Positions 4,731 through 47,812 of a DNA stretch of 64,000 nucleotides are shown one piece after another; within the stretch, counting starts at the first letter, position 1; each line of letters begins with the position of its first letter. The DNA is from Paludibacteraceae bacterium (GTDB lineage: Bacteria; Bacteroidota; Bacteroidia; Bacteroidales; Paludibacteraceae). The notes beneath the pieces are model-generated. The model made no database searches. It had not been told where the DNA came from and worked only from the letters and a program-made list of their open reading frames with translations. The stretch is from NCBI GenBank assembly GCA_017467185.1, contig JAFTSS010000085.1, positions 1 through 64,000 on the forward strand. The letters are read 5' to 3'. The position numbers and the translations under genes were made by a program.

Positions 4731-4975
4731 AGACATAATGACATAAAGACATAATTTTTTTTTCTGCATACGCCTTGCTACATCTACGATGTATCTTGGC
4801 GGAAGAATGACAGACCTATCGGTATTAAAATCTGTCATTCTTTGGCTGAGATGAAACTTTGGTTTCAGCAAAGCTTGTGTTAAGAGTGATAAATTTTGTC
4901 ATTATGTCATTTTGTCTTAAAATTAATCTGTTTGAAATTAATTTTGAGTGAGTTTGCTACTATTTAACGTGAGTT
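4731..4975 (+). mobile_element. MITE-like element family A, copy 2 (tandem with copy 1)
   Basis: About 97% identical to 4479-4725. Confidence 0.7.
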
Positions 4976-5368
4976 CGATATAACTTTATAGCACACGGAA
5001 AACACGGATGACACAGAATTTGATTATTTATCTCCCACAGATTTTTTAACAAGATTATTGCTGTGCTCGGCAATTAGAGTAAACTCTATTGCTCTCGCTT
5101 ATCGCAATAATTCACAGATTTCTCAGATATTTTTCTTTCTTTACTATTCGATTTTTATCAAGATTTTGTTTATATTCAGCATAACCCAAATAAATTTGGC
5201 TTCTGCTCTCACTTATCACAAAATTCGCTCTTTTGCTACGCAAAAATAACTTCGTTGAAATTGCTTTCGTTCGGCAACTGAAGTAAACTTCGTTGCTCTC
5301 ACTTATTCGCAATTTTCGCTCTACTGATAACACGGATGCCATACGGCGTTTTATATCGAACGGACGTT
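4966..5368 (+). mobile_element. MITE-like element family B, copy 1 (18-bp TIR AACGTGAGTTCGATATAA / TTATATCGAACGGACGTT), enlarged by an internal duplication
   Basis: Its TIRs are shared with the copies at 14209 and 46690. The flanking hexamer TATTTA is duplicated. The right TIR supplies the last codons and stop of ispG. Confidence 0.65.
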
Positions 5369-6076
5369 ATTTATAAGCTCTAAAAGTTTTTCGATTGCTT
5401 CTTCTTCGGGGATGTTTTTCATTACGCATTCTTTGCCTTTGTAGAGTGAGACTTTACCCATTCCGGCTCCGATGTAGCCAAAGTCGGCATCTGCCATTTC
5501 GCCTGGTCCGTTGACGATACAGCCCATGACGGCGATTTTGAGGCCTACGAAACCTTGTGTGGCTTCTTTGACTTGACGGACTACACGTGGTAGGTCAAAT
5601 TTTGTACGCCCGCAAGATGGACATGAGGTGTATTCGGTTTTGCTGATGCGACAGCGTGATGATTGTAGGATTTCGAATGCTATGTCGTTGACTTGTTCGG
5701 CTGTGATGAATTCAGATTTGTTTGTGAGCCAAATGCCATCGATTAGGCCGTCGATTAGGTATGGTCCGAAGAAAGCTGCTGCGTGTATTTGAAGTGTTTC
5801 TAAATCGTCGAGTTCGAAGTGTTTTTTTAGGATTATTGGTTTGTCTGTTTTGAGTAATTCGTTGAAATTTGATAAATCTTCAACAATTGCAATATTTCCT
5901 TCTAAAGTCATAATCTCATCTGCAGTATAATCAGGTTTTAGTAGGGTGTTAAGTTGTTCGTTTGCTATTACAACTACGGGATTATTACCACCTATTTTGT
6001 CTATTGCAATGCTTTTGCGACGAGAATATTCAGTCTTTAATTTTGTGTTATCAATTTTGCATTTTGCATTTTGCAT
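5351..6076 (-). CDS. ispG: 4-hydroxy-3-methylbut-2-enyl diphosphate synthase, C-terminal segment (insert domain plus 4Fe-4S domain)
   Basis: 241 aa carrying the conserved C-terminal CPSCGRT...KIAVMGCIVNGPGE motif region of IspG/GcpE. It begins with its own ATG inside the heptamer tract. Confidence 0.8.
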   Translation of the reverse strand: MQNAKCKIDNTKLKTEYSRRKSIAIDKIGGNNPVVVIANEQLNTLLKPDYTADEIMTLEGNIAIVEDLSNFNELLKTDKPIILKKHFELDDLETLQIHAAAFFGPYLIDGLIDGIWLTNKSEFITAEQVNDIAFEILQSSRCRISKTEYTSCPSCGRTKFDLPRVVRQVKEATQGFVGLKIAVMGCIVNGPGEMADADFGYIGAGMGKVSLYKGKECVMKNIPEEEAIEKLLELINNVRSI

Positions 6077-6909
6077 TCTACATAGTCAACAAGTTTGCGA
6101 GCTACGGGGATTTCGGCTTCAGGGGCTTCGGATAGGGATACGCGGATTGTGTCGCCAATGCCGTCGTGGAGGAGAGTGCCGATGCCGACTGCTGATTTTA
6201 TGCGTCCTTCGTCGTCGCTGCCAGCTTCGGTTACGCCGAGATGAAGTGGATAGTTTTTGCCTTTGGCGTCCATCATTTGTACTAATAGGCGTACTGCGTA
6301 AATCATTACGCGTGTGTTAGAGGCTTTGACAGAGAGGATTAGGTTGGTAAAGCCTTCTTGCTCGCAGAGTTCGATGAACTCCATACATGAAGTGGCAAGT
6401 CCGAGAGGTGTGTTGCCGTAACGGCTCATGATGCGAGGAGAGAGTGAACCGTGGTTGACGCCGATGCGAATGGCTGTGCCTTTGTCTTTGCAGATAGAGA
6501 GCAGTGTGTGTAGTTTTTCGCGGATACGGCGTAGTTCGTCGTTCCATTCTTCATCGGTGTAGTCGCCATGCTTGCCAGTGACGAAGTTGCCGGGATTGAT
6601 GCGCACTTTTTCAACTAATTGTGCAGCGACCTCAGCTACGTTGGCGTTGAAGTGGATGTCGGCAACGAGGGGTAGGTCGATGCCTTCGGTGCGTAACGCT
6701 TCTTTTATTTTGCCGAGATTTTCGGCTTCTTTTGTGCCTTGTGTGGTGTAGCGGAGTAGTTCTGTGCCAGCTTCGAGACAGTGTTTTGCTTGAGCCACAG
6801 AGGCCTCGATATCGTTAGTGTCGGTGTTGGCCATTGTTTGTATGCGGATAGGGTTGTTGCCACCGATGCGCAAGTTGCCAACTTGAATTTCTTTTGTTTG
6901 TCGTCTCAT
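6037..6909 (-). CDS. ispG: 4-hydroxy-3-methylbut-2-enyl diphosphate synthase, N-terminal TIM-barrel segment (frame-separated from the C-terminal segment)
   Basis: 290 aa with N-terminus MRRQTKEIQVGNLRIGGNNPIRIQTMANTDT, typical of IspG. It ends 40 nt inside the next ORF in a different frame. Confidence 0.8.
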   Translation of the reverse strand: MRRQTKEIQVGNLRIGGNNPIRIQTMANTDTNDIEASVAQAKHCLEAGTELLRYTTQGTKEAENLGKIKEALRTEGIDLPLVADIHFNANVAEVAAQLVEKVRINPGNFVTGKHGDYTDEEWNDELRRIREKLHTLLSICKDKGTAIRIGVNHGSLSPRIMSRYGNTPLGLATSCMEFIELCEQEGFTNLILSVKASNTRVMIYAVRLLVQMMDAKGKNYPLHLGVTEAGSDDEGRIKSAVGIGTLLHDGIGDTIRVSLSEAPEAEIPVARKLVDYVECKMQNAKLITQN

Positions 6910-9726: not shown

Positions 9727-9754
9727 GTAGAGACGCAAAATTTTGCGTCTCCAC
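9727..9754. repeat. palindromic element gtagagacgcaaaattttgcgtctccac (family GAGACGCAA-N-TTGCGTCTC)
   Basis: Near-perfect inverted repeat in an intergenic region. Confidence 0.7.
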
Positions 9755-9854: not shown

Positions 9855-11717
9855 TCAAAGTACTATCTTTTCCACCTCATCACCAACAGCAATCACATAC
9901 ACCCCACGTGGCAATGATAATTGAGCATCACGACCAGTATAAATTAATCGACCATTTACATCAAAGAGTTGATAATCTGCCGACAAACCATCCACATATA
10001 GCACACCGCCCACTGAATATATTGCAATATTTGCATTTTCGGTATTTTCGATTGAAGTATCTTCATCACTTTCTACTACATTGATAAATTCGCCCCAATA
10101 TTCATCATTTGCGTATGCCTCACGAGCTCCTTCTGGCACAATCACAGGGATATTTCTGTTCACATCGAAGAATGTTTTTGCAAAAATAGTTGGAGGCTCG
10201 ATAGCATTCACATTGATTTGTTTCATACGACTACAGAGTGCAAAACAGTTGTCGCCAATGCGTTGTGTAGTCGATGGCAAAGCGAGCGAATCGAGATAAG
10301 TACAACCATAGAATGCCGCATCACCCACTTCGGTTACACCCTCTGGAATTACAAGATTTTCCAACGCATGGCAGTTGTAGAATGCCCAGTTACCGATGCG
10401 TTGCAATGCCACATCGCCATCGGCTGCAGCACGTTTCATGCGCGATGCGAACGATTTAGCCTCAGCTTGACCACCAAATGTGATAGATTTGATAGAACGA
10501 CAATTCTCGAATGCTGCATCATTGATTTCTACCACCGAAGCAGGAATATTTATCTCTTTCAACTGATAGCACTCTGCCATAGCCTTAAATCCAATAGTTT
10601 CGAGATTGCCAGGCAACATCAAGTTCTCCAATTTATAGCAGTCGTAGAATGCCAAGTCGTTGATTGCAGTGTTTGTAGTACCAGCGAGGTCGATAGTATG
10701 AAGCGATTTTTTCGAGCGATTAATATAGTTAAAACCATTCTCATCCAACTCTCCATCAGTGATATGCACCTCAGTCAATTTATTAGAAAATTGGGTTTGA
10801 AATTCTTCCTTAATCGAATTAACCAATTTAGCAGGGCCTTGGAAATAACGAAGGTTTTTAGTTGCGTTAAGAGGATGCCATGTTTCGTCACTAGATTCAT
10901 AAAAATCAAGTTCTACATCATCCCCAAATTCACAAATCAAAGTATCAAGAGAAGAAACCATAGGAATCCATTCATCGCTTTCTTCATCATAAATATTATA
11001 ACAATAAAAAATGCTTTCACCAATATATTTAACTCCACTACCAATTTTTGCATACCTTAATTGCGCACAATCCCTAAAGACTCGTCCTCCAATACAAACT
11101 ACACTATTAGGAATTTCTATTGATGTAAGTCCAGAACATCCCCTAAATGCACTTTCTCCAATAAAAGTTACGCGATTGGGAATTGTGATTGATGTGAGAG
11201 CAGAATAATTATAAAATACATAATCCTTAATAGAGTCAACATCTTCTGGTACAACTACATCTGTTACTTTTTTATTATTTAAATATAAATTTTCTGCATA
11301 GTGTAGGGGGTTAGCAGTACTACAATTCTTAAATTCAATATCAAACCATGCGCCTACATCAAATATATATACATCAACAAGTGAATAACAAGCCAAAAAA
11401 GCATCTCCACCAATAGTTGTTACACTATTTGGGATTGTGATTGAAGTGAGAGATGAACATCTAGAAAATGCAAAATCCCCAATCTCAGTCACACTATATT
11501 CTACACCATTATAGGTTACTTTTTCAGGAATAACAATTTCTGATTGAATATATCCCGCACCATTATCATCCCATAAATACCCCCCATCATTCGTAACAGT
11601 AGCCGTCTTATTCTCATGGTCGAAATCGTAATAGATACCATCGATTTCGGCTTCATAGGCGAATGCCATTGTTGCACTACACAACAATGCAATCAATAAA
11701 AAGTAAATTTTCTTCAT
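9855..11717 (-). CDS. BspA-type leucine-rich-repeat surface protein with T9SS C-terminal sorting domain
   Basis: 620 aa with a signal peptide and repeated IPNSVTxIGxxAFxxCxxL modules (LRR_5/BspA type). The C-terminal approximately 80 aa resemble a Por secretion tail. Confidence 0.7.
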   Translation of the reverse strand: MKKIYFLLIALLCSATMAFAYEAEIDGIYYDFDHENKTATVTNDGGYLWDDNGAGYIQSEIVIPEKVTYNGVEYSVTEIGDFAFSRCSSLTSITIPNSVTTIGGDAFLACYSLVDVYIFDVGAWFDIEFKNCSTANPLHYAENLYLNNKKVTDVVVPEDVDSIKDYVFYNYSALTSITIPNRVTFIGESAFRGCSGLTSIEIPNSVVCIGGRVFRDCAQLRYAKIGSGVKYIGESIFYCYNIYDEESDEWIPMVSSLDTLICEFGDDVELDFYESSDETWHPLNATKNLRYFQGPAKLVNSIKEEFQTQFSNKLTEVHITDGELDENGFNYINRSKKSLHTIDLAGTTNTAINDLAFYDCYKLENLMLPGNLETIGFKAMAECYQLKEINIPASVVEINDAAFENCRSIKSITFGGQAEAKSFASRMKRAAADGDVALQRIGNWAFYNCHALENLVIPEGVTEVGDAAFYGCTYLDSLALPSTTQRIGDNCFALCSRMKQINVNAIEPPTIFAKTFFDVNRNIPVIVPEGAREAYANDEYWGEFINVVESDEDTSIENTENANIAIYSVGGVLYVDGLSADYQLFDVNGRLIYTGRDAQLSLPRGVYVIAVGDEVEKIVL

Positions 11718-12090
11718 AATAATTAAAGTTTTAGTGATTAATATAATTCGTTTTATAAAATAGAGACTATAGGTGAAATAGTAACTATAGGAGCAATAGA
11801 GACTATAGAAACTATAGTAGAGGGGAGATTAAACAGGCGTTAATTTAATATTAGGTGTATCAGGTGGTTATTAAAAATGTACAAATAAAGTGGATGACGG
11901 TTTTTTTCGGCAGAGGTTGTTTGCACCTTCGATAAGGGTAGGTTGTGGATTTAGTTGTACATTTTGACACAAAAAAAACGTGGAATTCGACTGTTGTCGT
12001 TCCACGAACTGAGGCTGTCGCATTGCCTTGAAGTCGGAACAGACAACGCGAAGCCCACGCTGAAATGTATGTATATTTATACCCCTACAG

Positions 12091-12112
12091 GAGACGCAAT
12101 ATATTGCGTCTC
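12091..12112. repeat. palindromic element gagacgcaatatattgcgtctc
   Basis: Perfect 10-bp arms. Confidence 0.7.
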
Positions 12113-12312
12113 TACAGGTATGTACAACATTCCCGTAGGACATCTAACGTTGCAATGCTCTTGACTTCATTAGAAACTGCGACATTTCAGTTCGTCAGAA
12201 CAAAGCGTCGATAAACGCCTATTTATTATTTATATCTTGCGATTCCCACCCGATTGCCCAATCAGCGTGAGTTTCACACCGCAAAGGTAGAAATTATTTT
12301 TGAAATATCCAA

Positions 12313-13251
12313 TTATTCCGAAATAATTTTTACGTTTTCGGCTATTATTGTTTTGTATTTTTCTTTTATTTCGTTTGGTAAGAACGATAGGTCTATCATT
12401 TCATACCATGCAGGAATAGTTTTATTGAATTTTTTGAATATATTGGCAATAGTTTTTTCTTCTAAACCTGAATTTTGCATTGCTATTTCGAAGTCTATTT
12501 TTTTTATCTTCCGTTTTTTGCTATTCAGATTCAATGCCAATTCTTCAGTGTCTTCTGGTAAAACTAATTGTGTTGATAAAAGGTTGTAAGCAGGAGATAA
12601 TATATGTCCGTATCCGATTGGTTTATATAGTGAAAAGTTCTTTAAATGCATATCGGAATTTCCAACTAACCACGAGAATAGAACTATTTCCCAAAATTTG
12701 ATGATGTCTAATTTTGGTACAGATGAATATTTGGCAATTAGTTTCGCTATTTGTTCGTATGACCCTTTATATTTATGCTCTGTTAATCTTTCTGATAATT
12801 GACACATATCTTCCATTGCAAGTTTGTATCCATTGTTTAATCTATCAATGCGACGAGTCAAATAGCAAAGGCGACCATCGGCAATTGGTATCAATGTATG
12901 AGGTACAACGTCAATACCAGATATTTCAGCCAAATGCATAGTTAAATCTTCGATTTCTGGTAGATTGGCATAAATGTCGGTTTGAGGTTTTAATATGTAT
13001 CGTCCCCATAAACCAACAATAGTGAATCTTTTTTCTTTGCTCTCTGTAGTGATATCTAACGAAAGTTTAGCTTGAACCCCAGTTAGTGTGGTTTGACTGC
13101 GAATGACTTCTTCTGCCAATTTGTTTAAATCAGCATGATGAAAATTGGCAATTGGGCACGTTGTATCGTTGAATATTTTTTTTGAACATGTGCGATGAAA
13201 CCCAATTTCGCCATTTTTTAATTCTTTGTAACAATAAAAACATTTAGCCAT
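12313..13251 (-). CDS. HipA-like serine/threonine kinase toxin (HipT-like: kinase core without the HipA N-terminal subdomain, with N-terminal CxxC...HxxC zinc ribbon)
   Basis: 312 aa. It carries the catalytic-loop motif VGNSDMHLKNFSL typical of the HipA family and an N-terminus CFYCYKEL...HRTC. Confidence 0.75.
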   Translation of the reverse strand: MAKCFYCYKELKNGEIGFHRTCSKKIFNDTTCPIANFHHADLNKLAEEVIRSQTTLTGVQAKLSLDITTESKEKRFTIVGLWGRYILKPQTDIYANLPEIEDLTMHLAEISGIDVVPHTLIPIADGRLCYLTRRIDRLNNGYKLAMEDMCQLSERLTEHKYKGSYEQIAKLIAKYSSVPKLDIIKFWEIVLFSWLVGNSDMHLKNFSLYKPIGYGHILSPAYNLLSTQLVLPEDTEELALNLNSKKRKIKKIDFEIAMQNSGLEEKTIANIFKKFNKTIPAWYEMIDLSFLPNEIKEKYKTIIAENVKIISE

Positions 13252-13255
13252 ATCT

Positions 13256-13582
13256 CTATTCTTCTTCTTTTATTTCAATGACACTAATAGCTCCTATGCA
13301 ATCACGGCAACAAGCTAATAATAGCGACATGCGGTCGCGATTGTTTATTTTCCAATTGCGCTCTGCTATATCAAGTAGCCAGCCTTCAGGTATTAAACCA
13401 TCAAAAAATGGGAATAACACTTTGTCGTGGTATGTTTCTTCTTGCAGTGGTAGTGTCAAACTAATTGGTTCGGCATCTGGTTGTACTAGATATTCTTTCT
13501 TGTACTGAAAAGAATAACCATTGTCTGTTTCTCGTAAAATGCCAACTTGTCTGTCTCGTAGATATATATATGCTTGTTTCAT
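13256..13582 (-). CDS. HipA N-terminal-domain protein (HipS-like third component)
   Basis: 108 aa. A 5-nt gap separates it from the kinase gene, and its start overlaps the hipB-like stop. Its length and position match HipS of the HipBST systems. Confidence 0.65.
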   Translation of the reverse strand: MKQAYIYLRDRQVGILRETDNGYSFQYKKEYLVQPDAEPISLTLPLQEETYHDKVLFPFFDGLIPEGWLLDIAERNWKINNRDRMSLLLACCRDCIGAISVIEIKEEE

Positions 13583-13785
13583 TATTTATCTCTATCTTGT
13601 TTGATTGGACCAACTTCGTAACCAAATAGATTTAATACTTGGTTCAATTTGTCAAGACGTAAAGTCTCTTTACCTTGTTCTAAATCACGAATAAAACGTA
13701 ATCCAACTCCTGATTTTTCGGATAAGTCAATTTGTGTTAGGTGATATTGCTTGCGCATTGTTTTTATAAATTCTGCAATTGTCAT
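13582..13785 (-). CDS. XRE-family helix-turn-helix antitoxin (HipB-like)
   Basis: 67 aa containing the HTH LTQIDLSEKSGVGLRFIRDLEQGK. Confidence 0.75.
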   Translation of the reverse strand: MTIAEFIKTMRKQYHLTQIDLSEKSGVGLRFIRDLEQGKETLRLDKLNQVLNLFGYEVGPIKQDRDK

Positions 13786-13806
13786 AGTTGTTTTTTTGTC
13801 GATTAT

Positions 13807-13906
13807 TATACCTTATAGGGTATAATTTATTGTTTAATTATTTATTTTATACCCGAAAAGGTATATTTTTGTTCTTATTTGGTGATATTATACCCGTTCG
13901 GGGTTA
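13807..13906. promoter_or_regulatory. three palindromic operator-like sites TATACC-N6-GGTATA upstream of the hipB-like gene
   Basis: tataccttatagggtata (13807-13824), tatacccgaaaaggtata (13848-13865) and the imperfect tatacccgttcggggtta (13889-13906). Confidence 0.5.
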
Positions 13907-14208
13907 TTTTGTGTTGCAAAGGTAGAAATTATTTTTTGAATATCCAATTATTCTAAAATATTTTTTTATTGGTGGTCTGGTAAAAAATAAAGCAATTATT
14001 CAAACTGTTAATAAACAAAGGGGAGATAAGATAATCTTATGAGAGGGGGAGTTTTTAGTTCGACGTTTTCAACGTCGTAGAGTGTGGGGAGTTTTCTTCT
14101 TCTGCAGGTAATTTTTGCGATATCGCTTCGCTTCTCGCAAAAATCACCCGCAGTTACGCATAATTCGACGTTTTCAACGTCGTTGTATCTTGAATTCTCC
14201 TTAATTTT

Positions 14209-14452
14209 AACGTGAGTTCGATATAACTTTATAGCACACGGAGCCAACGGTCTTGAGCCTTGGCGAAAATGCACAGATGACACGGAGATTTTTCATTACA
14301 TACCCCTCTGTTCAGCAGACATATTGAGCGGACGCACGAGCCGTGCGTCCCTACAATGAGGAGGATTTTTGCCGAATTCGCTCTTTTGCTACGCAAAAAA
14401 CGCTCTACGGATTGTACGGATGCCATACGGCATTTTATATCGAACTGACGTT
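14209..14452 (+). mobile_element. MITE-like element family B, copy 2 (244 bp, 18-bp TIRs, flanked by duplicated TTAATTTTA)
   Basis: TIRs aacgtgagttcgatataa / ttatatcgaactgacgtt. It contains an internal palindrome gacgcacgagccgtgcgtc. Confidence 0.7.
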
Positions 14453-14592
14453 AATTTTATTGTGAAATTATAAATATTTTAATTCGCATAGGTTATTTCG
14501 TTTATATGAATTATCATAATATAATTTTTAGCGGACAGTAATAATTTTTTAATGATGGATATTAGAACTTTGTTTTGAATTTATAGAAATCC

Positions 14593-14632
14593 TTTTACAT
14601 AAACAACGGCTGAACCGCATTGCGATTCAGCC
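14593..14632 (-). terminator. long perfect hairpin aaacaacggctgaa-loop-ttcagccgttgttt downstream of the ppiD-like gene
   Basis: 14-bp perfect stem. There is no strong U-tract, which is common in Bacteroidetes. Confidence 0.4.
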
Positions 14633-14658
14633 GTTGTTTATGTAGGATATTATTTTGA

Positions 14659-26514: not shown

Positions 26515-26562
26515 TTTTTGAAAAAAGAATGTTAAAAATTTGGTAGTTAGCAAAATAATTTG

Positions 26563-26570
26563 TAACTTTG
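26563..26570 (+). promoter_or_regulatory. Bacteroides-type -7 box TAACTTTG for the rimP-nusA-infB operon
   Basis: TAnnTTTG 60 nt upstream of the rimP ATG. Confidence 0.5.
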
Positions 26571-26585
26571 CACCGAATTTAAGAT

Positions 26586-31630: not shown

Positions 31631-31700
31631 TAGTTTTTTTATAATTTCTATAGCCACTATAGCTACTATAGCCACTATAGTTTCTATAGCCACTATAACT
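31631..31700 (+). repeat. nonamer array (CTATAGCCA/CTATAGCTA)x~6 upstream of cvpA
   Basis: Direct inspection. The same family occurs at 47706-47790, 42141-42170 and 11745-11830. Confidence 0.8.
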
Positions 31701-35313: not shown

Positions 35314-35386
35314 GAGCCACATTGGGGACTCGAACCCCAGACCTACTCATTACGAATGAGTTGCTCTACCAACTGAGCTAATGTGG
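35314..35386 (-). tRNA. tRNA-Thr (anticodon CGT)
   Basis: 73 nt. The cloverleaf folds manually (acceptor GCCACAT/ATGTGGC, D-arm GCTC-AGTTGGTA-GAGC, anticodon loop TTCGTAA, T-arm TGGGG-TTCGAGT-CCCCA). No CCA is encoded. Confidence 0.85.
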
Positions 35387-35396
35387 CAAGGTTATT

Positions 35397-42142: not shown

Positions 42143-42214
42143 CTACTATAGTTCCTATAGGTTCTATAATTCCTCATTCCTCATTTCTCATTTCTCATTT
42201 CTCATTCCTCATTC
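42141..42214 (+). repeat. nonamer (CTATAGNNC) then heptamer (CATTCCT/CATTTCT)x7 array immediately 5' of the helicase start
   Basis: Direct inspection. Confidence 0.8.
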
Positions 42215-44728
42215 TTGATAATGTCTATTTACGAAATTGCCGAAGAATTTATTCAGTTGACTAATTGCTCTGTTTTCCTGACAGGTAAAGCTGGTACGGG
42301 TAAGACTACTATGCTTCGGCAGATTCGTGATGTGGCATTCAAGCAAACAGCCGTTGTTGCTCCTACTGGTGTGGCGGCTATCAATGCTGGTGGTACGACA
42401 ATTCATTCCTTTTTTCAACTCCCTTTTTCTCCATTTATACCTACTATTGAGGCAAAAAAATCGTTTATTGCAAAGCAACAGGTCAATAATGTTCGCCGTA
42501 AAATATATCGCGAGCTCGAATTGCTTATCATCGACGAGGTTTCTATGGTGCGTGCCGACGTACTTGATGCAATTGACACAGTATTACGTCATTATCGTTT
42601 CCGCCCAAATGAGCCATTTGGGGGAGTCCAAGTAGTTTTCATTGGCGACATGTACCAATTGCCTCCTGTCTGCGTGGGTGAAGAGTGGGATCTATTGCGT
42701 CGTTATTACGAAACACCATATTTCTTTCATTCTCAAGTCATTCGTCAAGATCCCCCGATATATATCGAACTTGATAAAATTTTTCGTCAAAGCAATCAGC
42801 AGTTTATCAATTTGCTTAACGAAGTTCGCAATAATCAGCTTACTCCCGACACTTTCCGCTTGCTGAATCATTGTTATCAGCCTAATTTTCGTAATGTTGA
42901 TGAATATATCACTCTCACAACGCATAATGCCTCTGCCGATGCAATCAACAATGACGAATTAGCAAAAATCGATGCACCATATTATAAATTTATGGCTCAT
43001 ATCGACCGCGATTTTCCTGAACGAATTTTCCCAACCGAGATAGAACTTATCCTTAAATTAGGCGCAAAAGTCATGTTCATTGCCAATGACATGGCTCAAC
43101 CTCGTCGTTATTATAATGGAAAAATTGGTGAAATCACCGAGATAAATAATAATGAAATTTGGGTTACATGTGAAGGTGAAACAGAGGCGATTAAAGTCTC
43201 GCTCGAAGTGTGGGAAAACAAGTCCTATACTATCGACCCTAAAACCAATCAGATAGAAGAAAAACTTTTGGGTACTTTTACTCAATATCCTCTGCGTTTG
43301 GCTTGGGCTATTACTATTCACAAAAGTCAAGGTCTTACATTTGATAGGGTAGTGATTGATGCTGCCGCAGCCTTTGCTTCTGGGCAGGTTTATGTCGCAT
43401 TATCGCGTTGTCGCTCATTAGATGGAATTGTTTTAACCTCTCAAATCAACCCTAATTCCCTTGCTGTTGACCCTCAAATTGTGCGGTATAGCGAGCAGCG
43501 TCTGCCTATTGTTGAGCTTGAGCGTCAAGTTGAATTATTTAAATCTCGTTATAGTATTCAACTTCTTGCTAAGTTGTTTAGCCTCGAAGATTTAATGTCG
43601 CATACATTCAGTTTTGTAAATTATATCAAAACTGTTTTAGATGATTTCAACGAAGATACTGCGCCTTATCTCGATGAAATATTAAAACGTGTGAATGATT
43701 TATATGCTGTAGCACAACGTTTTGTGGCACAACTTTTATCTTTCAATCCTAAATTAGACATAGTTCGTATTGCTGAACGTGTAAAAGCTGCTTCTGGCTA
43801 TTTTGTTCCTCAACTTGATGATTTATTGGTTCTTATAGAATCATCTCCTGCTATAACCGAAAGCAAAGTAGAGGCTCAAGATTATATTGATCGTTTACAA
43901 GCTGTGTTTGAAATTGCGTCACAACTTCGTCATATCATTGCGGGCATTGCCGATGATATCTCCGTAATTAACTATTTCGATGTAAAACAGTCATATAAAG
44001 TTCCGCCGTTTAAGGTGAAAGCCTACGTTGTAGAACGTGAAGTGAAGATGTTAAAGACCGAGCATCCAAAACTTTATAAAATGCTTGCTACTTGGCGTAA
44101 TGAGTATTGCAAAGAGAATAACATTCCTGCATTTCAAATGTTTAGCAATGCTACTTTGGTCGAAGTATCAAATCGTCTTCCTATCGAATTAGAGTCGCTA
44201 ATTAAAATTAAAGGTTTTGGAAAAATAAAAATCCAACGATTTGGTAAAGAGTGTGTTGATATTGTGCGAATTTATTGTCGTGAAAATGGTATCGATGCCT
44301 CATCTCAGTCTGATATTGCTTTTGAATCAGAGTCTGATTATGGTAATGCCGCAGAAGAAGGTAGAGACGCAATAAATTGCGTCTCAAAAAACAAGAAAAG
44401 TAGGCGCAAGGAAAAAGAAAAAATAGAAAAAATACCAACCAAAGAAATAACGTTATCTCTTATTAATCAGGGAAAAACGTTACAAGAAATTGCCGACGAA
44501 CGAAGTCTTGTTTTAAGTACGATCTACACTCATTTGGCAAAACTCATACATGCAAAAAAAATCGACATCGCTCAATATGTCGATATCGATTTATTGGATA
44601 GGGTTATGTTGGTTCTCAATGAAACCCCTGAAATTTCTAATTCTGAACTATTCGAACGCCTCGAAGGTTCTGTAACATACGATGAATTAAAACTTATTCG
44701 AGCTCATCAACTTTCAAGTAATAATTAG
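42215..44728 (+). CDS. Pif1/RecD-like SF1B DNA helicase with C-terminal HRDC-like and HTH domains
   Basis: Walker A LTGKAGTGKTT, with helicase motifs throughout the first 450 aa. An HRDC-like region lies at aa 640-700 and a C-terminal HTH follows. Confidence 0.7.
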   Translation: MIMSIYEIAEEFIQLTNCSVFLTGKAGTGKTTMLRQIRDVAFKQTAVVAPTGVAAINAGGTTIHSFFQLPFSPFIPTIEAKKSFIAKQQVNNVRRKIYRELELLIIDEVSMVRADVLDAIDTVLRHYRFRPNEPFGGVQVVFIGDMYQLPPVCVGEEWDLLRRYYETPYFFHSQVIRQDPPIYIELDKIFRQSNQQFINLLNEVRNNQLTPDTFRLLNHCYQPNFRNVDEYITLTTHNASADAINNDELAKIDAPYYKFMAHIDRDFPERIFPTEIELILKLGAKVMFIANDMAQPRRYYNGKIGEITEINNNEIWVTCEGETEAIKVSLEVWENKSYTIDPKTNQIEEKLLGTFTQYPLRLAWAITIHKSQGLTFDRVVIDAAAAFASGQVYVALSRCRSLDGIVLTSQINPNSLAVDPQIVRYSEQRLPIVELERQVELFKSRYSIQLLAKLFSLEDLMSHTFSFVNYIKTVLDDFNEDTAPYLDEILKRVNDLYAVAQRFVAQLLSFNPKLDIVRIAERVKAASGYFVPQLDDLLVLIESSPAITESKVEAQDYIDRLQAVFEIASQLRHIIAGIADDISVINYFDVKQSYKVPPFKVKAYVVEREVKMLKTEHPKLYKMLATWRNEYCKENNIPAFQMFSNATLVEVSNRLPIELESLIKIKGFGKIKIQRFGKECVDIVRIYCRENGIDASSQSDIAFESESDYGNAAEEGRDAINCVSKNKKSRRKEKEKIEKIPTKEITLSLINQGKTLQEIADERSLVLSTIYTHLAKLIHAKKIDIAQYVDIDLLDRVMLVLNETPEISNSELFERLEGSVTYDELKLIRAHQLSSNN
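44361..44385. repeat. palindromic element gtagagacgcaataaattgcgtctc embedded in-frame in the helicase gene (encodes GRDAINCVS)
   Basis: Perfect 10-bp arms located in an inter-domain linker. Confidence 0.7.
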
Positions 44729-46617: not shown

Positions 46618-46689
46618 TAAATATTTCAGAACTAAAGTAGGGACACGGCATGCCGTGTCCGTTGTTAAATGGAATAAAAACACTTAATT

Positions 46690-46942
46690 ACGTCAGTTCG
46701 ATATAAAAATCCGTATGGTATCCGTGTAATCTGTAGAACTATTTTTGCGTAGTAAAAGAGCGAATTCAGCCAAAATCCTTCTCAACGTAGGGACGCACGG
46801 CTCGTGCGTCCGCTTAATATGTCTGTAGAACGGAGGGGTATGTGATAAAAAAATCGTGTTATCCGTGCATTTTTCGCCAAGGCTCAAGACCGTTGGTTCC
46901 GTGTGAGATAAAAGTTATATCGAACTCTCGTTAATTATGAAT
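46690..46942 (-). mobile_element. MITE-like element family B, copy 3 (inverted orientation, flanked by duplicated TTAATTA)
   Basis: About 85% identical to copy 2 over the whole length, with the same 18-bp TIRs. Confidence 0.7.
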
Positions 46943-46950
46943 TTTGAATT

Positions 46951-47715
46951 ATGAATTGTGCATTATATTTAGTTCCTACCCCTGTAGGCAATCTCGAAGA
47001 CATAACATATCGTGCCTTACGAATTCTAAAGGAGGTGAATCTTGTGCTTGCCGAAGATACTCGCACTACGGGTATCCTTTTCAAACATTTTGATATTCAC
47101 ACTCCTATGGCATCGCATCACAAATTCAACGAACATAAAACCATAGCACATTTTGCCGATCGCATTCTCGCTGGCGAATCCATAGCATTAGTTAGCGATG
47201 CTGGCACTCCTGCAATTTCTGACCCTGGTTTTATGCTTGTGCGTGAGTGCGTTGCTCGTGGCATTAGAGTAGAGTGCCTCCCTGGAGCTACAGCTTTTGT
47301 ACCCGCATTAGTCGATTCAGGCTTGCCAACCGATCGTTTCTGTTTCGAAGGATTCTTGCCACAGAAAAAAGGCAGACAAACCAAATTACAATTGCTTATT
47401 TCTGAAGATCGTACAATGATTTTCTACGAATCCCCATACCGACTTGTAAAAACACTCCAACAATTTGCTGAAGTCTTTGGCTCAGAACGTCAAGCATCAG
47501 TTTCACGCGAAATATCTAAAATGTTCGAAGATACACAACGTGGTACGCTACAACAGCTTATCGAACATTTTACAGCCATACCACCCAAAGGCGAAATCGT
47601 AATTGTAGTAGCTGGAGCTAGTAGAGACGCAATACATTGCGTCTCAACAGGCGAAGATAAAGATGAAGAACAAGACCTCGCAAAAATCCGAAAATCCAAA
47701 AAACATAGATTATAG
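46951..47715 (+). CDS. rsmI: 16S rRNA (cytidine1402-2'-O)-methyltransferase
   Basis: 254 aa with N-terminus LYLVPTPVGNLEDITYRALRIL. It carries a C-terminal in-frame palindromic-element insertion. Confidence 0.85.
   Translation: MNCALYLVPTPVGNLEDITYRALRILKEVNLVLAEDTRTTGILFKHFDIHTPMASHHKFNEHKTIAHFADRILAGESIALVSDAGTPAISDPGFMLVRECVARGIRVECLPGATAFVPALVDSGLPTDRFCFEGFLPQKKGRQTKLQLLISEDRTMIFYESPYRLVKTLQQFAEVFGSERQASVSREISKMFEDTQRGTLQQLIEHFTAIPPKGEIVIVVAGASRDAIHCVSTGEDKDEEQDLAKIRKSKKHRL
47621..47645. repeat. palindromic element gtagagacgcaatacattgcgtctc embedded in-frame near the 3' end of rsmI (encodes SRDAIHCVS)
   Basis: Perfect 10-bp arms. Confidence 0.7.
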
Positions 47716-47812
47716 CGGCTATAGCAACTATAGCAACTATAGCGGCTATAGCAACTATAGTAACTATAGCAACTATAGTTGCTAATTCCTAACTCCTCAT
47801 TCCTCATTCTCA
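47706..47812 (+). repeat. nonamer array (CTATAGCAA/CTATAGCGG)x~9 followed by (CATTCCT) heptamers, abutting the HAD-hydrolase start codon
   Basis: Direct inspection. Confidence 0.85.

Follow-up and report, generated by a model that had tools for sequence, protein, structure and literature searches.

Two direct repeats around a HipBST-type toxin–antitoxin cassette in Candidatus Aphodosoma are probably one predicted promoter in duplicate

How does a toxin–antitoxin (TA) operon come to lie between two copies of the same short sequence, and what is that sequence? The question is raised by a 64,000-nucleotide stretch of DNA (the window) from a Paludibacteraceae bacterium (NCBI GenBank assembly GCA_017467185.1, contig JAFTSS010000085.1, positions 1 to 64,000), in which a three-gene hipBST-like cassette is bracketed by direct repeats of about 50 bp. 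Movement of chromosomal TA operons is poorly understood, and most of these operons have no mobility genes. The organism is Candidatus Aphodosoma (Paludibacteraceae, Bacteroidales), and anchoring on PpiD gave the corresponding locus in about 12 sister species. Comparison of these loci points to an answer: the two 51-bp copies are probably a single predicted promoter that was duplicated around the cassette.

A repeat search of the window aligned 12281-12331 (copy 1) with 13916-13966 (copy 2) as an ungapped 51-nt direct repeat. The copies are identical at 46/51 positions (90%), and the first 21 nt are fully identical. BLAST of the cassette region against the window returned the pair with E = 1e-13 and no further copy in the 64 kb. 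A search with the 21-mer, allowing ≤3 mismatches, recovered both sites and one weak match at 26551-26571 that fronts another gene, against 0.02 expected by chance. Direct repeats of about 50 bp around the cassette, as described in the initial annotation, are thus present. The overlap that it had noted between the first copy and the end of the kinase gene is also real: positions 12313-12331 of the kinase open reading frame (ORF; 13251..12313, minus strand) fall inside copy 1, where they supply one base of a Val codon, five further codons and the TAA stop, and the kinase tail VKIISE* is encoded within the repeat. Copy 2 lies 131-181 nt upstream of the hipB-like start codon (13785). It had been placed at 13916-13972; its identity of about 90% and its site upstream of the hipB-like gene hold, and its end moves to 13966, where the similarity stops. 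The sequences outside both ends of the two copies are unrelated. The pair is also found in independent assemblies (ENA, NCBI GCA_017622455.1 and Logan) and is therefore not an assembly artefact. Logan contig L003 covers both copies and is not circular.

On the minus strand each copy reads AAAAATTATTTCGGAATAA-TTGG-20 nt-TACCTTTGC and contains the bipartite motif TTG(G), 20 nt, TACCTTTG. The -33 TTG is at 13947..13945 in copy 2 and at 12312..12310 in copy 1; the corresponding -7 TACCTTTG elements are at 13924..13917 and 12289..12282. The minus-strand end of both copies is TAnnTTTGC (13916-13924 in copy 2). The primary-sigma (sigma-A type) promoter of Bacteroidetes reportedly combines a -33 TTTG with a -7 TAnnTTTG. 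Both copies fit this layout, with a -7 TAnnTTTG and a -33 TTG box at a spacing inside the 19-21 nt range. Across the window, 11/28 sites with the bipartite motif are followed within 300 nt by a long ORF on the same strand, versus 2.6 expected. A scan for sigma-70 promoters and terminators was uninformative for this organism. Homology between the copies stops directly 3' of the -7 box. Copy 1 is followed not by coding sequence but by a leader segment, whose conservation starts 3-4 nt past TTTGC. The 51-mer is best read as the predicted promoter of a leader RNA for surface-protein genes. It also holds an imperfect palindrome, AAATTATTTCGGAA-N10/11-TTCCAAAAATAATTT.

Two promoters of this type could be alike merely because strong promoters of the genus share an extended consensus. 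The promoters of unrelated Na+/H+ exchanger genes in the sister loci L010 and L013 are ~83% identical to copy 2 over 37-40 nt, and the weak match at 26551-26571 is of the same kind. Yet the 46/51 identity of the two copies includes the non-consensus upstream 20 nt, the chance expectation is 0.02, and the empty-site junctions around one copy described next contradict separate origins. Independent promoters are a highly improbable explanation.

The next comparison is with sister loci in which the cassette is absent. Both L009 and L008 have a single 51-mer (11625-11675 of L009 and 14820-14870 of L008), joined base for base to the right flank on one side and to the left flank with its leader on the other. 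In the window the right flank is followed by copy 2, then by the 1,584 bp of the cassette, by copy 1, and by the left flank with the leader. As the two flanks meet at one copy in L009 and L008, the repeats enclose an insertion or deletion the size of the cassette, and the search for a relative with a single repeat copy and no cassette, proposed in the initial annotation, gave a positive result. The single copy of L009 is identical to copy 1 at 50/51 positions and to copy 2 at 47/51, and copy 2 joins the right flank exactly as the single copy does in the empty sites. Three filled lineages, the window, L179 and L171 (ppiD 95-98% identical at the nucleotide level), have identical sequences at both junctions, and the cassettes of L171 and L179 occupy the same site and are 98% identical. 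L179 matches the window at 100% over the right copy and 309 nt of leader, at 98% over the cassette and at 97.7% over ppiD. In other sister species ppiD is followed directly by an Na+/H+ exchanger gene, without the promoter, leader and leucine-rich repeat (LRR) gene unit. Exact-protein look-ups for the window species (kinase, PpiD and LRR protein) returned the filled context only and no within-species polymorphism. Considering the ppiD-locus data alone, gain of the cassette in the window clade is more parsimonious.

These data also bear on the proposal, made in the initial annotation, that the repeats are remains of an ancestral tandem array of TA units. A common promoter would have fronted every hipBST unit, and the unit past copy 1 would have decayed. 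Copy 1 does sit at the expected promoter position of a next unit, and several Bacteroides-type relatives repeat an operator-bearing palindrome just past the kinase gene. However, tblastn found no second hipB, hipS or hipT in the window or in any retrieved locus, and there are no operators after copy 1. What follows copy 1 is a conserved structured RNA common to cassette-free units, not decayed coding sequence. The empty-site sequence upstream of the single copy aligned with kinase 3' regions no better than shuffled controls. With neither a second unit nor a relic next to any copy in these loci, the tandem array was rejected, and we give it almost no weight.

Related cassettes locate the junctions more closely. 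The kinase family is very large and belongs to Bacteroidales; in Aphodosoma and its relatives there are three cassette lineages, namely the type at the ppiD site, L174, and the group L085/L177/L183. The L174 cassette (87% nucleotide identity) is at a different locus adjoining coaX. Its kinase gene ends within a copy of the promoter element at the same position as in the window, followed by a leader-like unit and an M6-peptidase/LRR gene. The promoter upstream of the L174 cassette resembles the element over a ~30-nt core only, no more than unrelated promoters of the genus do. In L085/L177/L183 the cassette (80% nucleotide identity) occupies a third locus, has its own promoter and the native kinase tail ...LIFE*, and is without the repeat. 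The distance from the -7 box to the operators is the same in these relatives as in the window, which places the left junction of the window within or at the -7 box. The relatives' own promoter, native tail and lack of a repeat indicate that both junctions fall at short homologies.

A sequence of events can be proposed from these junctions. In the native setting a predicted promoter with an AT-rich upstream part would drive a leader RNA ahead of BspA-type LRR genes. Downstream of ppiD, the 1,584-bp hipB-hipS-hipT cassette would have been inserted exactly between this promoter and the leader start, and the whole promoter would have been duplicated so that it flanks the cassette, a footprint called 'insertion with long target duplication'. 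The joining would have been recombinase-independent and would have used short homologies that lie in crossed order in the target, ~50 bp apart. At the left join the -7 box of the cassette may have paired with the 3' end of the promoter, with ~10 nt shared, and at the right join the kinase 3' end (...ATTTTTGAATAA in relatives) may have paired with the 5' part of the promoter (...ATTATTTCGGAATAA). Together the two joins would produce the 51-bp target duplication and an in-frame swap of the kinase tail. The joining may have occurred de novo or during homologous import from an older L174-like composite of cassette, promoter and leader. The left copy, with its -7 box at the position of the relatives' own -7 box, would now drive hipBST under HipB operator control. 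The right copy would still drive the leader, and the kinase ORF reads 19 nt into it for its last codons and stop. The 51-bp repeats would then permit precise loss, or exchange between the copies, through homologous recombination. A promoter duplicated around an inserted TA cassette, through microhomology joins or homologous import of an older composite, is the account that we judge likely, although with real room for doubt.

Several observations weigh against this account. The microhomology joins are deduced from relatives that are only 80-87% identical, and the resemblance between the native kinase tail and the 5' part of the promoter is not significant alone. L174 has the kinase-to-promoter junction at another locus. 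The divergence of its host (87-90% nucleotide identity over a coaX fragment) is about that of its cassette (87%), so the junction may be old. The single-copy sites of L008 and L009 could be secondary deletions produced by recombination between two copies. Most differences between copy 2 and the empty-site sequence lie near the flank, and the lineages differ in which variant bases the left copy has and which the right, a shuffling that no simple one-step model predicts. These shuffled bases, together with the 100% identity of the L179 right copy and leader beside its 98% identical cassette, show that recombination acts at the repeats. Finally, in a survey of 64 loci containing relatives at 56-67% amino acid identity, evaluated against a mismatched-pair control, about 54 had no flanking direct repeat above the control.

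The possible age of the L174 junction leads to an account in which no new duplication took place at the ppiD site. Ordinary homologous recombination would have brought in an older L174-like composite, the donor consisting of its own promoter, hipBST, the promoter element and the leader. The promoter-leader unit would have served as the right arm, and a left crossover in the ~30-nt promoter core would have kept the recipient promoter on the left and taken the second copy from the donor. L174 provides an example: it has this composite at another locus, its kinase gene runs into the promoter element at the same point as in the window, and its left promoter is identical to the element core at 26/29 positions by manual count. 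The promoter-leader unit is multi-copy, with Logan contigs that break within it, and the identities in L179 (100% for right copy and leader, 98% for the cassette) place breakpoints at the repeat. Against import stands the orthologue-like character of the right copy and leader of the window, which are 50/51 and 87% identical to L009 versus 82% and 76% to L174. The right crossover would have to fall in the first few bases of the element, or the donor would have to be much closer than L174. Import also moves the origin of the first composite elsewhere. It is unlikely as the whole explanation.

The empty site with a single copy is equally a property of site-specific elements, and att-like sites left by integration or excision were the other suggestion of the initial annotation. 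The 51-mers would be attL and attR of a non-autonomous cassette, similar to a cis-mobilizable element (CIME) or an integron cassette, and the recombinase would be encoded elsewhere. A circle or tandem junction would read ...GCCGAAAACGT, one 51-mer, AACACAAAATAACCCCG. Integrase-less att elements share with the window a small insert, direct repeats and a single-copy empty site. The 21-nt identical core common to the copies, the imperfect palindrome in the element, the shuffled variant bases and the joining of a 13%-diverged cassette to the same element at a second locus (L174) would also agree with this explanation. However, an integrase, transposase or serine recombinase was sought with Pfam in the cassette, in the neighbouring genes (ppiD, the LRR gene and an Na+/H+ exchanger gene) and in 10 further window ORFs, and none was found. 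There is no tRNA or tmRNA target, the sole tRNA of the window being at 35314-35387, and there is no cassette array. The second locus is occupied without a clean second copy, since the upstream side of L174 is similar over the core promoter only, as unrelated promoters of the genus are. The third-locus relatives are without the element, and most of the surveyed loci are without flanking repeats. Searches of phage genomes and viral contigs found no close cassette relative, and the promoter element is absent from the viral contigs; distant cassette relatives are carried on eight large plasmids. The repeat also has the appearance of a functional host promoter belonging to a low-copy unit, not of a dedicated site, which is a further reason why a site-specific att mechanism is unsupported. 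The part of the suggestion that survives is the cassette-sized indel with its single-copy site. The site-specific mechanism, with no recombinase among the ORFs scanned and no tRNA target, is improbable.

Promoter duplication around the inserted cassette is the preferred account. The features of the locus are collected in Table 1.

Table 1. Positions of the repeat copies, cassette genes and flanking features in the window.
Feature	Position	Strand	Basis or remark
Repeat copy 2 (left in transcription direction)	13916..13966	-	Repeat search, motif; now fronts hipBST
Repeat copy 1 (right)	12281..12331	-	Repeat search, motif; overlaps kinase end and TAA (12315..12313), fronts leader RNA
Cassette-specific DNA, 1,584 bp	12332..13915	-	Absent from empty sites L009 and L008
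hipB-like helix-turn-helix (HTH) gene, 67 aa	13582..13785	-	Pfam HTH_3; NCBIfam TIGR03070 couple_hipB
hipS-like gene, 108 aa	13256..13582	-	HipA N-terminal subdomain alone; Pfam Couple_hipA 1.3e-28
hipT-like kinase gene, 312 aa	12313..13251	-	Pfam HipA_C 1.9e-43
Three 18-bp palindromes, TATACC-N6-GGTATA	13807-13824, 13848-13865, 13889-13906		Read from sequence
Structured leader RNA (predicted), ~310 nt	11968..12276	-	Homologue alignments, pair-count controls
BspA-type LRR surface-protein gene	9855..11717	-	Pfam LRR_5 7.5e-72; downstream of leader
Right flank between ppiD and copy 2	13967..14658		Mosaic shared with empty sites, plus secondary indels; alignment, self-BLAST

The three cassette ORFs overlap or abut on the minus strand (13785..13582, 13582..13256 and 13251..12313). 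The hipB-like protein scores 82 bits with TIGR03070 couple_hipB, above the cut-off of 71.65. The nearest solved chain to the hipS-like protein is HipS(Lp) (7VKB_B, E = 1.5e-16), and the nearest to the kinase are the HipT(Lp) chains (8EZR/7VKB, E = 1e-56). An HTH protein, a ~100-aa HipA N-terminal subdomain protein and a ~310-aa HipA_C kinase are encoded in the same order in the HipBST systems of Legionella pneumophila (PDB 8EZR/7VKB/7WCF) and E. coli O127 (7AB3-7AB5). Gene order, the split HipA and the kinship to HipT identify the cassette, at the level of sequence, as a HipBST-type TA operon. A CxxC...HxxC segment near the kinase amino terminus (residues 4-22) distinguishes the window kinase, lying outside the region aligned with the solved HipT chains, which starts at residue ~48-52. 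The D200-M-H-L-K-N205 loop and D223 of the kinase are invariant or nearly so in the family alignment. We take D200-N205 and D223 to be the catalytic residues from what is known of HipA. The three palindromes follow one another at intervals of exactly 41 bp in the stretch from the -7 box to hipB, and they are kept in the upstream regions of the relatives. They are probably HipB operators, a role that we presume by analogy with the E. coli hipBA operators.

The leader ends in a terminator hairpin followed by T8 (12006..11971). It is strongly conserved in sister species and in one paralogous unit, with homologues at 11676-12005 of L009, 220-550 of L008, 5972-6300 of L171 and 1961-2305 of L174. 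Support for its structure was assessed with five homologues and 112 predicted pairs. Pairing is found in 94% of cells, compared with 36-47% when the partner columns are slid. Compensatory pairs, in which both sides have changed, number 14, compared with 5.9 ± 1.7 in shuffles, and 0/500 shuffles reach 14. The main helix is long-range, and one of its strands competes with the left arm of the terminator hairpin, an arrangement like that of an attenuator. Rfam searches of both flanks, by gathering threshold and by E-value, assigned no family and gave only chance miRNA-type matches on hairpins. The arrangement of promoter, leader and LRR-type gene is also found in a second unit of L008, in L171 and in L174. 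The second L008 unit fronts another LRR gene and has no cassette. The repeat element is the head of this low-copy promoter-leader unit, which is present twice in L008 and is multi-copy in the genus. Logan contigs break inside the unit, which suggests that more units lie elsewhere in the genome.

Other repeated sequences lie in or near the leader. A perfect hairpin at the apex of the leader helix (GAGACGCAATATATTGCGTCTC, 12091-12112) recurs intergenically at 47624-47651, 44361-44385 and 9727-9754. The start of the LRR gene is closely preceded by an 18-nt tandem repeat (AATAGAGACTATAGG...) at 11759-11819, with similar arrays at 47700-47779, 31640-31697 and 42143-42167. In the distant Muribaculaceae-type genome L157, a promoter (TATAACTTTGC) at ~5490-5600 precedes a terminator-ended segment of ~110 nt. 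This segment has the motif GGGTGGGnnTGCAAGACATAATAA in common with the 5' domain of the Aphodosoma leader and no Rfam match.

The right flank between ppiD and copy 2 differs among the three filled lineages by secondary indels only. A ~250-bp dispersed element resembling a miniature inverted-repeat transposable element (MITE) occupies 14207-14456, with inverted ends at 14195-14226 and 14435-14466. It has a further copy at 46686-46934 and fragments at 4963-5375. The window and L179 have it at this site, L009, L008 and L171 lack it, and contigs of several assemblies break here because of it. A 105-bp indel unit (14079-14183) contains a hairpin (14102-14153) between 23-nt direct repeats at 14056-14078 and 14161-14183 (96% identical). 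The window and L008 have this unit, and L179 and L009 a single 23-mer. It makes a second small insert with direct repeats at its ends in that intergenic region. In L008 an insertion sequence (IS)-type transposase gene (325 aa) at 12699-13676 separates ppiD from the right flank, and the LRR gene that follows the leader is truncated. Across the genus, the DNA from ppiD to the Na+/H+ exchanger gene forms a variable hot spot.

Flanking duplications recur in the cassette family and are not the rule. They were rejected as a general property of the family, as most of the 64 surveyed loci are at the control level. L157 is a close structural parallel to the window. A single cassette lies between two copies of ~200-250 nt that consist of the 3' end of an OmpA-like gene and the following intergenic DNA, and the kinase gene reads into the downstream copy. 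No empty site was found for L157 among OmpA contexts that are 99% identical. A 42-nt exact repeat appears to flank the relative L086 on both sides, as implied by contig ends and de Bruijn-graph reasoning. The long repeats of L159 and L153 were rejected as clean junctions and are duplicated neighbour genes (HU-like and XRE). A wider reading would treat the HipBST-type cassettes of Bacteroidales as self-contained mobile units that enter by recombinase-independent long target duplication and land at promoters, terminators and the 3' ends of genes. The right junction would then fall within the last kinase codons, and L157 and L086 would be further cases. We regard this generalization as unlikely. 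If it held, addiction modules would share a transposase-free mode of mobility, and insertions could capture host promoters.

Two other patterns were seen among the relatives. In the Bacteroides-type relatives L123, L130, L132, L133 and L114, a palindrome of 55-69 nt lies on both sides of the operon. It contains operator-like motifs (CCCCGAAAAGGTATAATT...AATTATACCTTTTCGGGG) and is located ~100-160 nt upstream of hipB and 20-230 nt past the kinase stop. At the L157-type locus, the kinase ORF (kinase region 5535-6512) is in pieces of 123-292 aa in L185, L186, L188 and L189, and hipB and hipS are intact, which suggests that this type of toxin gene has been inactivated repeatedly.

Long target duplication has been described for restriction-modification (R-M) units (Nobusato et al. 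2000, Gene 259:99; Furuta, Abe & Kobayashi 2010, PMC2853133). Around R-M units of Helicobacter, Haemophilus and others, the duplications measure 45-47 bp and ~370-420 bp, and some overlap the 3' ends of genes (PMC2853133). The class is defined there by a one-copy empty site, a duplication of >30 bp and an insert of <20 kb that lacks mobility genes. The footprint in the window has each of these properties: a one-copy empty site, a 51-bp duplication and a 1,584-bp insert without mobility genes. The class further asks that the repeat be neither a high-copy dispersed element nor an IS end; here two copies lie in the 64 kb, L008 has two units, and contig breaks suggest additional copies in the genome. 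The cargo is of the addiction type in both cases, the length of 51 bp is close to the reported 45-47 bp, and the overlap of copy 1 with the kinase gene resembles the reported overlaps with gene 3' ends. The window differs in that the cargo is a HipBST-type TA operon rather than an R-M unit and that its host, a member of the Bacteroidales, is uncultured. The driver suggested for the R-M class is double-strand breakage by the restriction enzyme, and a kinase toxin offers no equivalent. Here the target that is duplicated is a complete predicted promoter, so that the insert and the displaced transcript would each keep one. TA systems are not mentioned in PMC2853133, and the reviews of TA systems consulted here cite the class for R-M only.

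Campbell-type integration and homology-facilitated illegitimate recombination likewise leave an insert bracketed by a duplicated segment without a dedicated recombinase. The duplicated length in such events equals the homologous or overlapped stretch, which fits the short junction homologies of the window. These homologies are nevertheless short, ~10 nt exact at the -7 box and patchy at the kinase tail. The variant bases of L171 lie at positions that a simple Campbell crossover does not account for, and that model was rejected.

The scope of the finding is one locus, and most cassette relatives are without such repeats. At this locus the states before and after are both visible at base resolution: where the empty sites have one copy of the predicted promoter the window has two, and HipBST would have become wired to a host promoter. 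The displaced leader would keep its own promoter copy, and the end of the toxin gene would have been rewritten by the target. The 51-bp repeats would allow clean loss of the cassette. On the account preferred here, a footprint known from R-M systems would extend to a TA system and to the Bacteroidales.

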